Part shown: in pieces, positions 30,479 through 33,323 of the stretch
Position numbering within the stretch: the first letter of the stretch is position 1
Layout of the letters: every line of letters begins with the position of its first letter
Source of the DNA: Acidimicrobiaceae bacterium
Lineage (GTDB): Bacteria > Actinomycetota > Acidimicrobiia > Acidimicrobiales > Bog-793
DNA: 63,084 nucleotides
Direction: 5' to 3'
Assembly (NCBI GenBank): GCA_003140595.1
Contig: PLKG01000132.1
Location: 271 to 63,354, forward strand
Translations under genes and position numbers: made by a program
Notes under the pieces: model-generated
What the model saw: only the letters and a program-made list of their open reading frames with translations
Databases searched by the model: none
What the model was told of the DNA's origin: nothing

Positions 30479-32514
30479 GCCGCGACTGCGGCCAGCACGG
30501 CGAGCAGAGCGACGAGCATGTAGGCGATATAGGCGTCGAGGCGCCCGGACTGTAGGCGTTTGGCGTGGCGAGCGAACAGGAGCCAGAGCGCCCGAGCCGG
30601 GCGGTAGAGGTAGGCCTCGGCGGGCTCGACGACGCTCATGATGACCTCGAGACGGGTGCCATCAGCGGGCTCGTCGGTGCCAGGGGTGCCGGACGGCTCG
30701 ACGACTTCCGAGGCGTGACTCGCCCCGAGCACGTTGCCAAGCACGTGACGCAGCACATTCGCGTACCCGAAGGCGCTGTAGCGATCCGGCCCCGCTACAG
30801 CCGGGCTCGCAGAGCGCCAGGCAGGAACTCGCCGCACACGGAGGAACCGGCCCCGCGAAAGCACCAAGGTGGCGAGCGCCACGGCGAAAAAGGCGATCGG
30901 CAACTCGACCATCAGCCACGAAGGCGAGAGGATCGAGAAGCCGGAGAACACCGGCTGGAGCACCCAGGGAGACTTGAGGGCCTGCAAACTCGCAGAGGCC
31001 GGGACGATCGGCGTCAGCCCGCGAGCCAGGAACCTCACGACGAAGGGGGCTACGGCCGAAAGGCCGATGGACGAGACTGCGAGCAGGACAAGCCCGGCCT
31101 TGCCGGCAAGTCCGCCACCATCCGCGAGATCCTTGTCCGGTGCGGTCCGGACGGCTCGACCGAGCACCGCAAAGCCGATCAGGCGGACGAAGGCGAATGC
31201 GGCGACTCCGGTCGTAAGCGCCACGAGGGCTCCGGCGCCAGCCATCGCGAGTCGAAGTGCCAGGGCGTGGAGGCGGAACTCCTGCAGGAGCGCCTCGAGG
31301 AGGAACCACTCCGAGACGAATCCGATGGTCGGTGGGAGCCCCGCGAGGCTGAGCGAGCCGAGGGCGAAGGCGGCTCCGCTGACCGGTGTCCGTCGTCCGG
31401 CGCCACGCAGGGTCTCGAGATCGTCCGAATCGTTGTCGGAGGTGATGAACCCAGCCGATGCATAGAGGCCTGACTTGGCAACGCCATGGGCAAGAACCTG
31501 TAAGCTTGCTGCAAGAAGCCCCACTGCGGTGATCTCCGGGCGGCCGCTCGCGGCTCCCGCGAGCGCCACTCCGTAGCCGACGACGATGATGCCGGCATTC
31601 TCGACGCTCGAGTAGGCGATCGCGCGGTTCAGGCGTGACTGCACTGCCGCAAAGGAGATCCCGACCAGAGCTGTCACGCCTCCGAGCACGAGGACCGTCA
31701 CGACCAGCCAGATGGGAGGACGGCCGAGGATCCCGAGAAAGCGCCAGAGCCCGTAGAAACCGGCGTTGACGGCCAGCCCCGCCATGGCCGCCCGGGTCGG
31801 GCCCCTAGCCGCGGCGTAGCCGAGGGGCAACCAGACCTGGAACGGTAGAAGGCCCACCTTGGCGCCGAAGCCGACGACGACGAGAACGAAGGCGGCGTCG
31901 TGAAACGCGCCCGCGGGGACGTGACTCCAAGCACTCATGGTGAGAGTCCCGCTGTGGCCGGCAAGAAGCAGAAAGGCGAACAGCAGTGCCGCCCCGCTCG
32001 CCTTGCCCATGGCGAGTGTCACCCAGCTGGCCCGGGCATTGGCTTTGTCGGCACGACGGGCACCGACGAGGATGTAGAAGGCCAGGGTCATTGTCTCCCA
32101 GCCGAAGAGGAACGTGAACGCGTCCCCGGCGACAAGCACGACGGTGACCGCGCCCAGGAGCAGCAGGTAGCCGGCGGCGGTCCCCCGTCGCGCGACCCGG
32201 CCCACTGGCCGAGCCCAACCGACAAGACAGGCGGAAAGCGCTGCCGCAAGACCGCCGGTGAGCGTCAGGAAAAGCCCGGCCAGCGCGTCGAGGCGGACCG
32301 ACGTGCGGCCGACGCCGAACCCCGCGCCGAGGAAGACCACCCCCTCGGGGCGGTAGACAGCAAGCACGCCCGCCGCCGCCACGAGCGCGCCGCCGAGGAG
32401 ACCCGTCACAAAGGGGAACACCCGGACCAACGCCGTGTCGGCACCGGAGACGAGAGCGACAAGCGCACCCAGCGCCCAAAGGCAGAGCGCGGCGACGAGC
32501 AACGCGCCGATCAT
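30469..32514 (-). CDS. HyfB/MrpD-like proton-translocating membrane subunit of an Ehr-like complex
   Basis: FLFGWE, GFGAKVGLLPFQVWLP, AYSSVEN, HGVAKS, GLPPTIGFVSEW; ATGA overlap at 32514. Confidence 0.85.
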   Translation of the reverse strand: MIGALLVAALCLWALGALVALVSGADTALVRVFPFVTGLLGGALVAAAGVLAVYRPEGVVFLGAGFGVGRTSVRLDALAGLFLTLTGGLAAALSACLVGWARPVGRVARRGTAAGYLLLLGAVTVVLVAGDAFTFLFGWETMTLAFYILVGARRADKANARASWVTLAMGKASGAALLFAFLLLAGHSGTLTMSAWSHVPAGAFHDAAFVLVVVGFGAKVGLLPFQVWLPLGYAAARGPTRAAMAGLAVNAGFYGLWRFLGILGRPPIWLVVTVLVLGGVTALVGISFAAVQSRLNRAIAYSSVENAGIIVVGYGVALAGAASGRPEITAVGLLAASLQVLAHGVAKSGLYASAGFITSDNDSDDLETLRGAGRRTPVSGAAFALGSLSLAGLPPTIGFVSEWFLLEALLQEFRLHALALRLAMAGAGALVALTTGVAAFAFVRLIGFAVLGRAVRTAPDKDLADGGGLAGKAGLVLLAVSSIGLSAVAPFVVRFLARGLTPIVPASASLQALKSPWVLQPVFSGFSILSPSWLMVELPIAFFAVALATLVLSRGRFLRVRRVPAWRSASPAVAGPDRYSAFGYANVLRHVLGNVLGASHASEVVEPSGTPGTDEPADGTRLEVIMSVVEPAEAYLYRPARALWLLFARHAKRLQSGRLDAYIAYMLVALLAVLAAVAAWH

Positions 32515-33323
32515 CGGACAGCCGAGGCGGGGAGCAACCCGATGGCGAGGAGGATCCCGTGCAGCAGGCTGAACGGGCTCGGGGGCGAACCGGGGACGAA
32601 GACGTCGACCGGCACAATCGAGGAGATCCCCGCCCTGGTCACATAGCTCGGGTGAATGAGACCGCCACTTATCGCGTCTGTCCCAGCGGCGAGGACGACC
32701 TTCGGGCCGGGCATCGCCTCGTAGGTGGTGCGAAGCGGGCCCTCCATGCCCGAGGTCCCGGTACCCGTCACGAGAAGCAGGTCGGCATGGCGCGGACTTG
32801 CCGTGAAGAATATCCCGAGGCGCTGCACGTCGTAGACCGGGTTCAAAAGGGCCGCTACCTCCCACTCCTCAGAGCCGTCCGAGCCGGCGTCGAGGTGGCG
32901 CACGTGTACCGAACGCCGGAGGGCCCTCACGCGGGACCGAAGCTCTGCACGGACGCGGGTGACCTCCTCGTCGCTCTCCACCCGGCCCGGCACGACCAGG
33001 TGCTCGCGGTCCACAACGGCGATCTCGGGGGACGATTCGAAGACGAAACGACCCGGCCGCGTCTCTACACAACGACCGCAGAGGATGCAGCGGCCACGGT
33101 CGAGCGCGACCTCGCCCCGGTTCTCTTCGATCGCACCGGTCGGGCACAGAGAAGAAGGTCCCGAGCCGCGACCGCCCGACATCGGTTGCTCGCGCGGTGA
33201 CGGGTCCGTCCCTGCGCCGAGCACCGAGACCGAGCTCTTGAACTTTGCGCCGTATCCGTCCGCCTTCTTCGGATAGCCGGTGGTGACGATCCCTTCGCGA
33301 AGCCCTCGAAGCGCCCAGGCCAT
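32511..33323 (-). CDS. Ferredoxin + NuoB/HyfI-like small subunit with its Fe-S cysteines lost
   Basis: CPTGAI...CILCGRC ferredoxin; ASPRHADLLLVTG; motifs read DAGSDGSEEWE, GTDA, PGSPP. Confidence 0.85.
   Translation of the reverse strand: MAWALRGLREGIVTTGYPKKADGYGAKFKSSVSVLGAGTDPSPREQPMSGGRGSGPSSLCPTGAIEENRGEVALDRGRCILCGRCVETRPGRFVFESSPEIAVVDREHLVVPGRVESDEEVTRVRAELRSRVRALRRSVHVRHLDAGSDGSEEWEVAALLNPVYDVQRLGIFFTASPRHADLLLVTGTGTSGMEGPLRTTYEAMPGPKVVLAAGTDAISGGLIHPSYVTRAGISSIVPVDVFVPGSPPSPFSLLHGILLAIGLLPASAVR

Follow-up and report, generated by a model that had tools for sequence, protein, structure and literature searches.

A six-gene operon of the Hyf/Ehr type on contig PLKG01000132.1 of an Acidimicrobiaceae bacterium (GenBank assembly GCA_003140595.1) encodes a complex I relative that lacks the ligands of its terminal iron-sulfur cluster. 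The stretch analyzed, referred to below as the window, comprises 63,084 nucleotides of that contig. In the small subunit of the encoded complex, a NuoB/HycG-like protein, the four cysteines of the proximal [4Fe-4S] cluster site read Asp, Glu, Asp, and Ser (D/E/D/S). That an operon with such a Cys-less small subunit follows a fluoride riboswitch is new. The feature itself is real and selected: an Ehr-type relative of complex I exists without its terminal cluster. The gene and the sites concerned are the following, with the evidence for the sites in parentheses.

32511-33323, minus strand: small-subunit gene, ATG at 33323, stop codon 32513-32511, 270 residues
32877-32879, minus strand: codon of D149, cluster Cys position 1 (alignment, codon comparison)
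32868-32870, minus strand: codon of E152, cluster Cys position 2 (alignment, codon comparison)
32676-32678, minus strand: codon of D216, cluster Cys position 3 (alignment, codon comparison)
32586-32588, minus strand: codon of S246, cluster Cys position 4, PGSPP for PGCPP (alignment, codon comparison)
33069-33146, minus strand: stretch with the four retained cysteines, C60-P61 ... C79xxC82xxC85 (Pfam, alignment)

The original prediction, a note made from the DNA letters, had delimited this gene correctly; its reading frame sits on the minus strand. The ATG overlaps the stop codon of the upstream gene, and the stop codon overlaps the ATG of the downstream gene. Residues 153-258 match Oxidored_q6 (PF01058) at 68.6 bits against a cut-off of 27, and residues 72-120 match the single-cluster ferredoxin domain Fer4_15 (Pfam). 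The NCBIfam NuoB models match below their curated cut-offs (NF005012, 101.4 versus 116 bits; TIGR01957, 92.1 versus 142.7 bits). Among proteins of solved structure, the best sequence relatives in HMMER searches are E. coli HycG (7z0s_G, E 7.3e-32) and P. furiosus MbhJ (6cfw_J, E 6e-30), in which the four cysteines at the aligned positions ligate the proximal [4Fe-4S] cluster (N2 in complex I). In these alignments, D149 and E152 fall on the CxxC pair, D216 on the Cys of GxC(A), and S246 on the Cys of PGCPP, which confirms the predicted D/E/D/S replacement of all four cluster cysteines in the NuoB/HyfI domain. The four-Cys set that the NuoB/HycG family requires for its proximal/N2 cluster is thus absent. 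The surroundings are acidic as well, with D145, E153, and E155 adjoining the replaced sites. Structure prediction, named in the original prediction as a check, gives a model with a NuoB fold (AlphaFold2; mean predicted local distance difference test score, pLDDT, 81.7), and its top Foldseek matches are 7z0s_G (E 4e-14) and 6cfw_J (root-mean-square deviation 1.2 Å over 125 columns). Another contig of the same genome encodes a complex I NuoB of the usual kind, with every Cys in place.

Exactly four cysteines remain in the whole small subunit: C60, followed by Pro, and C79, C82, and C85. They had been predicted to be enough for one [4Fe-4S] cluster in the fused ferredoxin, and the Pfam domain and the Cys count agree. 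The stretch that holds them aligns weakly with the second CxxCxxC motif of HycF, NdhI, and MbhN (E 0.002-0.006). This match points to a remnant of a HycF/NuoI-type 2x[4Fe-4S] domain with ligands left for one cluster.

The other subunits are encoded by the same operon on the minus strand, in the order hycD-, hyfE-, and hyfF-like, large subunit, small subunit, and hyfB-like (Pfam, NCBIfam).

36957-37922, minus strand: HycD/NuoH-like membrane subunit, 321 residues, first gene of the operon (Pfam, gene order)
36282-36956, minus strand: HyfE-like small membrane subunit, 224 residues (NCBIfam)
34825-36279, minus strand: HyfF-like antiporter-type subunit, 484 residues (Pfam, NCBIfam)
33323-34828, minus strand: large subunit, fused NuoC+NuoD / HycE-like, 501 residues (Pfam, NCBIfam, alignment)
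30469-32514, minus strand: HyfB-like antiporter-type subunit, about 681 residues, its start overlapping the small-subunit stop (Pfam, NCBIfam)

The reading frames of the operon are intact and translationally coupled. The HycD-, HyfE-, HyfF-, and HyfB-like subunits all match Pfam or NCBIfam models, below equivalog cut-offs. Both antiporter-type subunits retain the Glu of transmembrane helix 5 (TM5), the Lys of TM7, and the Lys of TM12; the TM8 Lys position is Thr in the HyfF-like and Asn in the HyfB-like subunit. The functional roles of TM5 Glu, TM7 Lys, TM8 Lys/His, and TM12 Lys/Glu are known from work on complex I and Mrp antiporters.

The large subunit has lost its metal ligands too. Aligned to 80 related loci, it has E, A, S, G where true hydrogenases have C, C, C, C, and its NiFeSe_Hases match stays at 16.4 bits against a Pfam cut-off of 25.8. 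The two CxxC motifs (L1 and L2) that bind Ni-Fe in group 4 [NiFe] hydrogenases are therefore missing, and the operon shows the combination that marks Ehr, a group-4-like operon whose large subunit lacks the NiFe cysteines. Ehr was reportedly defined by Coppi in 2005 and Marreiros in 2013. The usual electron wire of such enzymes leads from the ferredoxin cluster(s) through the proximal cluster to the active site. Since this wire is cut in two places, H2 chemistry would be excluded: the complex is probably not a [NiFe] hydrogenase and would be unable to make or split H2. No electron-donor module (formate dehydrogenase, NuoEFG) occurs among 20 riboswitch-led neighbor genes and 11 window genes or open reading frames (Pfam). 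Likewise, no fdh or hyp maturation genes occur among the operon genes, the scanned window neighbors, and the 20 riboswitch-led neighbors, the remaining genome lying outside this search.

The D/E/D/S replacement is strongly conserved. In a close homologue set made up of the query and the best 120 of 6363 database matches (60-100% identity), site 1 is D in 121/121 proteins, site 2 is E in 111 and D in 10, site 3 is D in 121/121, and site 4 is S in 121/121; the ferredoxin cysteines are retained in 120-121/121. Random variation would have told against the original prediction; the sites are constant in these 121 homologues except for the E/D exchange at site 2, a position that reads V, I, or T in distant Cys-less homologues. 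The codons vary synonymously: among 32 loci with D at site 1, this site is GAC in 28 and GAT in 4, site 3 is GAC in 26 and GAT in 5, and the Ser codon of site 4 is TCG in 13, TCA in 5, TCC in 5, TCT in 3, and AGC in 1. The four residues are retained across sequences whose overall identity is as low as 45-75%, and they are present in the cultured isolates L012, L017, and L026 (L numbers denote the loci compared); L017 comes from Actinocatenispora comari NUM-2625 and L026 from Jongsikchunia kroppenstedtii DSM 45133. An alignment of cluster representatives (151 rows) gives 65 CCCC and 12 DEDS, the others being mixed or gapped; the 150 representatives are too fragmentary for clean counts, and genome loci were used in their place.

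A scan of one genome per species gave 80 loci, which were compared together with the window. Two gene orders occur, with the hyfB-like gene either last or first. The Cys-less hyfB-last rows are the window, L005-L032, L034, and L040 (31 rows); L008, whose genome is flagged unpublished, counts as one row, and no result hinges on it. Among these rows, 21 read DEDS, 5 read DDDS, and one each reads DDD- (contig end), DDDA, DIDD, DVDD, and DVAA, so that D stands at site 1 in 31/31. The four ferredoxin cysteines are kept in 30/31; in L007, the contig ends and the first Cys position is missing. In the hyfB-last sister loci L033, L038, L041, and L046, the small subunit has kept C-C-C-C, and the four [NiFe] positions of the large subunit are A, S, S, E. 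The hyfB-first loci comprise true hydrogenases, 10 rows with CCCC in the small as well as the large subunit, and ordinary Ehr. Of the NiFe-less loci that lie outside the Cys-less clade, 38/39 retain the four small-subunit cysteines, in agreement with the earlier statement that Ehr small subunits normally keep them. The exception, L083 (L083:8001-8699, Isosphaeraceae), reads D-T-D-S in an ordinary Ehr locus with no riboswitch. L045 (L045:8001-8660, Chloroflexota) reads E-C-E-D; its large subunit retains the NiFe cysteines, and it too has no riboswitch.

A tree of the concatenated NuoB domain and large subunit was computed with the four ligand columns masked (quick IQ-TREE search, SH-aLRT support). 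It has 79 rows, L007 and L039 having been dropped as too gappy. The hyfB-last loci form a single 34-row clade (SH-aLRT 100) that splits into 4 CCCC rows (100) and 30 Cys-less rows (99), and the Cys/Cys-less label needs three changes on the tree. The single 30-row clade indicates that the main Cys loss happened once and has been maintained since; acidic replacements appear to have arisen independently in two further lineages. The order of all six genes is kept across the clade. None of the 34 rows of this clade, called the riboswitch clade for the reason given below, that include a large subunit has the NiFe ligand set (33 are Cys-free at all four positions; the L023 sequence stops after E, C), and the proximal cluster ligands are also gone in 30/34. 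The 121/121 conservation, the synonymous codon turnover, and the well-supported single clade bear out the earlier view that the replacement is concerted and selected rather than decayed, and they indicate that D/E/D/S is kept under purifying selection in one clade, mostly Actinomycetota. A full-length family member is present in just 1/150 other sampled genomes of the window's class, too few for a class-wide co-occurrence comparison.

Upstream of the operon lies a fluoride riboswitch.

37953-38044, minus strand: fluoride riboswitch aptamer, between the enolase stop and the hycD-like start (relaxed Rfam scan, clade model, alignment)
37926-37962, minus strand: likely expression platform (minimum-energy fold)

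An Rfam scan of the whole window at curated thresholds gives no match. A relaxed scan of the leader finds RF01734 at 17.9-18.4 bits (cut-off 34, E 0.057), which is the best RF01734 match in the whole genome. At curated thresholds, 9 orthologous loci yield 12 matches, all to RF01734, in 7/9 loci; five of the 12 lie about 4.7 kb upstream of the small-subunit gene on the same strand. A clade-tuned covariance model, R1, was built from 10 of these hits, which therefore match it by construction, and it scores the window aptamer at 28.5 bits (E 1e-7). An aptamer was counted if it had an R1 E-value of at most 1e-5 within 450 nt upstream of the hycD-like gene. By this measure, it is present in 20/24 testable hyfB-last genome loci, compared with 0/34 hyfB-first loci (ordinary Ehr or hydrogenase). 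Three of the four genome loci without a counted aptamer have weak matches (13-14 bits) at the expected place. In L022, the aptamer lies further upstream, ahead of a histidine-phosphatase gene. Among metagenome loci, the aptamer precedes the operon in 20/21 with hyfB last and in 3/3 of undetermined gene order. These loci were fetched with peptide patterns that include the D/E sites and served for the riboswitch test alone, so that their site counts (33 DEDS, 1 DEDA, 41 CCCC, and 3 other among 78 loci) are biased by retrieval.

Alignment with the nearest relatives shows all core aptamer elements in the window leader. Helix P1 pairs 38044-38041 with 38032-38029 around the loop AUGAGGCU, a placement taken from this alignment, which shows that cmscan and R1 both mis-assigned P1. 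The loop holds GAGGC, able to pair with GCCUC of the aptamer tail. P1 is followed by a variable, clade-specific extra hairpin, a GAAC linker, P2, and the conserved tail GCUGAUGGCCUCUGC. The hairpin inserted after P1 accounts for the low Rfam score. A degenerate riboswitch, the other way to read a score below threshold, is ruled out by the completeness of the aptamer in the alignment. Minimum-energy folding (z -3.0; 1/200 shuffles as low) pairs the tail with GGAGG (37933-37929), the ribosome-binding site located 6 nt ahead of the GTG start at 37922. The predicted fold would suit a translational ON switch.

Fluoride aptamers with a variable hairpin between P1 and the GAAC linker characterize an Acidimicrobiales subclade (the window, L087, L092, L094-L096, and L006). 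With such an insert (18 versus 34 bits), standard annotation will miss the riboswitches of these Acidimicrobiales. A separate observation concerns L023: downstream of its first operon, another fluoride aptamer precedes a second NuoH/HycD-like gene (L023:10870-11923), which may represent a second copy of the complex in one locus.

The association of the complex with fluoride thus has strong contextual support from the riboswitches of the operon and its orthologues. Because the riboswitch-controlled sister clade keeps the four cysteines, the fluoride link appears to belong to the complex as a whole, to predate the Cys loss, and to be independent of D/E/D/S. In the portions of the literature consulted, the crcB motif is placed upstream of "genes encoding formate hydrogen lyase" (PMC2864571). 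A 2024 review citing Baker 2012 likewise counts formate hydrogen lyase (FHL) among the most common riboswitch-associated enzymes, reading it as a shift towards fermentation, and ranks Na+/H+ antiporters, by frequency, directly behind fluoride exporters among riboswitch-associated gene classes (PMC11139923, in the sections consulted). The association of the riboswitch with FHL genes of the RF01734 regulon, reported in 2010 and 2012, is reproduced here, and we infer that the present complex is the "formate hydrogen lyase" of that literature. However, the literature, in those portions, treats the riboswitch-linked FHL as a true FHL, whereas the 34 riboswitch-clade rows have no NiFe ligand set. 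A full-text search, outside whose scope lie paywalled papers and supplements (the gene lists of Weinberg 2010 and Baker 2012), found nothing on riboswitch operons without the NiFe site or without the proximal ligands.

The explanation that we consider somewhat better than an even bet is a fluoride-induced, redox-crippled, ion-translocating Hyf/Ehr-type complex with a selected acidic plug at a subunit interface. Cytoplasmic fluoride would switch the operon on through the riboswitch, as judged by homology. Electrons would be unable to follow the usual path from ferredoxin through the proximal cluster to the active site. The complex would most likely act as an Mrp/Hyf-type proton or cation translocator that supports pH and ion homeostasis under fluoride (hydrogen fluoride, HF) stress. 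This role is favored by the intact-looking membrane arm, by fluoride induction by homology, and by the frequency of antiporters in the regulon. The acidic D/E/D(+S) patch may be a selected stand-in, at the interface of the small and large subunits, for the negatively charged [4Fe-4S](Cys)4 unit. As a charge-conserving plug, it would pair with arginines of the large subunit, possibly together with a bound cation or protons, and would hold the peripheral cap together without a cluster.

The predicted complex of the two subunits fits such a plug. It scored 0.94, compared with 0.00 for the best of 3 controls, relative to a mark that 58/80 solved complexes and 2/110 mismatched pairs reach and that is only roughly valid here (own alignments, ligands included). 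The runs agree in at least 92% of contacts, and the partner pLDDT is at least 82. Like complexes are already solved (7z0s, 6cfw), so the score may reflect memory and shows likeness rather than binding; with this caveat, the NuoB fold found with Foldseek is joined by an interface with the NuoD/HycE-like large subunit. The model bears on protein contacts and not on metal binding, as its 4Fe-4S and Mg ligands were neither scored nor placed. Its interface includes D149, D216, and S246 of the small subunit and R187 and D249 of the large subunit, and the contacts include D149 with R202, a conserved large-subunit residue, and E155 with R285. Going by this model, a salt bridge or charge plug at D/E/D/S is no less likely than a metal site.

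The large subunit carries two sets of distinctive residues. E164, R187, D249, D321, and R369 are typical of the Cys-less clade only. R152, S153, K180, T483, and E489 are common to the whole riboswitch clade (Cys-less and CCCC) and differ from 41-45 of the 46 other loci compared. The latter five highlight the region of the former active site, where they could make up a pocket for an anion or a substrate.

Several observations weigh against an ion translocator with an acidic plug. The ligands of the ferredoxin [4Fe-4S] cluster are kept as strictly as D/E/D/S, which is odd for a fully redox-dead machine, and the sister clade does its fluoride-related job with the cluster ligands intact, leaving the Cys loss unexplained. 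The TM8 Lys of canonical antiporter-like subunits is missing from both the HyfF-like (Thr) and the HyfB-like (Asn) subunit. At the interface, the salt bridges rest on a predicted contact list rather than on coordinates; E164, D321, and R369, three of the five large-subunit residues specific to the Cys-less clade, lie outside the listed interface; and acidic gains in the pocket outnumber basic ones, a balance that would suit a cation site equally well. On the regulatory side, the window aptamer falls below Rfam's curated threshold, and R1 is derived from the hits of relatives and yields rough E-values. In the consulted parts of PMC6349859 and PMC7894505, Ehr complexes in general are described as having no known function.

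An unlikely alternative is that D149, E152, D216, and S246 form a hard-cation (Mg2+, Ca2+, or Mn2+) site that binds fluoride as a metal-fluoride complex, a sensor or handling site coupled to the antiporter-like subunits. The four replacements are all strictly conserved oxygen donors, and they would lie in very acidic surroundings (D145, E153, and E155 in the small subunit; E164, D249, and D321 in the large subunit). Enolase, the classic fluoride target, offers a parallel, as its two Mg2+ are ligated by Asp, Glu, Asp, and a Ser. The fluoride riboswitch itself binds fluoride through Mg2+, according to the sections consulted of the 2024 review (PMC11139923). The riboswitch control of the operon would also fit, as would the window's genome, which is 94% complete and shows no homologue of the known fluoride exporters, neither CrcB (PF02537) nor CLC (PF00654). 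However, the riboswitch-controlled sister loci keep the four cysteines, so a fluoride role needs no such site, and some Cys-less members read V, I, or T at site 2 and A or D at site 4. D149 contacts an Arg in the predicted complex. Moreover, CrcB is found in 15/30 other carrier genomes, often adjacent and divergently transcribed behind its own aptamer (most of these are metagenome-assembled genomes of unknown completeness), so that the complex is not simply a substitute exporter. For the same reason, the complex as a general replacement for the known fluoride exporters was rejected: it fits the window's genome and fails as a rule.

It is less probable still that the complex remains a redox enzyme, in which the ferredoxin cluster would feed a substrate in the former [NiFe] pocket, directly or through a non-Cys metal at D/E/D/S, and so drive ion pumping in fluoride stress. 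Retention of the four ferredoxin cysteines (120-121/121 homologues and 30/31 Cys-less rows) would be explained, as would the proximal ligands kept in the sister clade, the riboswitch clade's own large-subunit residues (R152, S153, K180, T483, and E489), and the key charged residues of the antiporter-like subunits. Against this stand the absence of any Cys at the proximal or the NiFe site and the lack of a donor or acceptor module among the neighbors scanned. In addition, we know of no [4Fe-4S] cluster with zero Cys ligands, and three carboxylates with a Ser are not a typical redox-metal site.

A similarly low probability attaches to a joint reading in which a complex-I-type machine has turned from redox chemistry to halide detoxification and would join Fluc and CLC-F as a third type of fluoride exporter. 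Here, D/E/D/S and a pocket of R152, K180, and E489 would bind Mg2+ and fluoride in an enolase-like manner, and the antiporter-like subunits, powered by the proton-motive force, would protonate fluoride or drive it out, as HF or F-, by way of the former quinone/proton cavity. Such an exporter would fit the window's genome because neither CrcB nor CLC is seen there. Finally, neutral decay of a complex on its way out, or an assembly artefact, would agree with the loss of both catalytic metal sites and the rarity of the family in the window's class (1/150) but is hardly credible given the intact, translationally coupled frames, the four residues conserved at 45-75% overall identity with synonymous codon turnover, their presence in the cultured isolates L012, L017, and L026, and the recovery of the sequence in DNA runs from 11 studies and of the operon in metatranscriptome contigs.

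In these runs, 98-99% of the sampled words are present in 14 peat DNA runs from 11 coded studies (P1-P11), which may include the source sample, and 27-42% are present in six metatranscriptome runs. Contigs from four of these RNA libraries lie on the operon stretch at a likeness of at least 97%, with DNA carry-over possible. Among them, two cover parts of the small-subunit gene (32403-32754 and 32456-32809), one spans the large/small-subunit junction (33277-33634), and one spans the aptamer and the hycD-like start (37769-38178). These contigs give neither strand nor level; the uncovered parts of the operon are uninformative, and depth cannot rank the genes.

HycG/HyfI of E. coli formate hydrogenlyase (7z0s_G) and MbhJ (6cfw_J), the best sequence and fold matches of the small subunit, have like neighbors (hycD-, hyfE-, hyfF-, and hyfB-like genes and a fused NuoCD/HycE-like large subunit). 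Unlike them, the small subunit here has D, E, D, S for the cluster cysteines and a one-cluster ferredoxin fused N-terminally, its partner lacks the [NiFe] cysteines, and the hyfB-like gene comes last rather than first. Unlike formate hydrogenlyase, the system shows no formate dehydrogenase among the scanned operon and window neighbor genes. Geobacter EhrS/EhrL belong to a group-4-hydrogenase-like set whose large subunit lacks the Ni-Fe cysteines and whose function is given as unknown in the parts consulted of the reports (PMC6349859, PMC7304191, PMC7894505, PMC4758237). The group-4-like gene set and the NiFe-less large subunit are shared with the present operon. However, the ordinary Ehr loci sampled keep the four small-subunit cysteines (38/39), have the hyfB-like gene first, and have the fluoride riboswitch in 0/34, and the operon here differs in all three respects. 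NuoB/PSST of respiratory complex I, which holds cluster N2, shares the Pfam family, the fold, and the predicted interface position with a NuoD-like subunit, whereas the small subunit here lacks the N2 ligands that the genome's real NuoB, on its other contig, has. The proposed work-alikes are the Mrp-type antiporters, which the complex resembles in having two MrpA/D-like subunits that keep TM5 Glu, TM7 Lys, and TM12 Lys, though not the TM8 Lys. The complex retains, unlike Mrp, a NuoH-, NuoB-, and NuoCD-like peripheral module and one Fe-S site, and it stands outside the Mrp family.

The gene islands around the operon and its orthologues also contain crcB, MutS-like, universal stress protein, NUDIX, enolase, and dynamin-like genes. 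The first open reading frames behind other aptamers in the relatives encode CrcB, MutS-domain-V proteins, universal stress proteins, NUDIX proteins, histidine phosphatases, dynamin-like GTPases, and ABC-F proteins, among others. The neighbors in the window are listed below.

28712-30478, minus strand: dynamin-like GTPase, 588 residues, its start overlapping the end of the hyfB-like gene (Pfam)
27361-28200, minus strand: histidine phosphatase (His_Phos_1), downstream of the dynamin-like gene (Pfam)
38114-39376, minus strand: enolase, second copy, 420 residues, directly upstream of the riboswitch (genome comparison)
39367-41977, minus strand: two radical SAM genes, one with SPASM and SEC-C motifs, upstream of the enolase

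A dynamin-like GTPase is the first gene behind a fluoride riboswitch at L014:11460-13259, L023:588-2411, and L041:1052-3151, and the literature examined yielded no mention of a membrane-remodeling GTPase in the fluoride regulon. In L022, a His_Phos_1 homologue (L022:2490-3191) separates the aptamer from the hycD-like gene. The second enolase is 55% identical to the genome's other enolase (contig C13), and no aptamer was found ahead of it in the window.

Reports since 2010 place fluoride riboswitches ahead of "formate hydrogen lyase" genes, and reviews still read this as a shift towards fermentation. If the complex indeed has no Ni-Fe site and, in most Actinomycetota, no proximal cluster, the fermentation reading would be wrong, and a common element of fluoride defense would have an unknown function other than that of a hydrogenase. 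The operon would also provide a natural experiment in the evolution of complex I and hydrogenases, as a peripheral arm survives without its terminal cluster and has a conserved acidic patch instead; two other lineages show similar acidic replacements. The riboswitch context turns a 15-year-old "formate hydrogen lyase" annotation into a testable question, and since the complex occurs in cultured, non-pathogenic actinomycetes, that question can be addressed directly.

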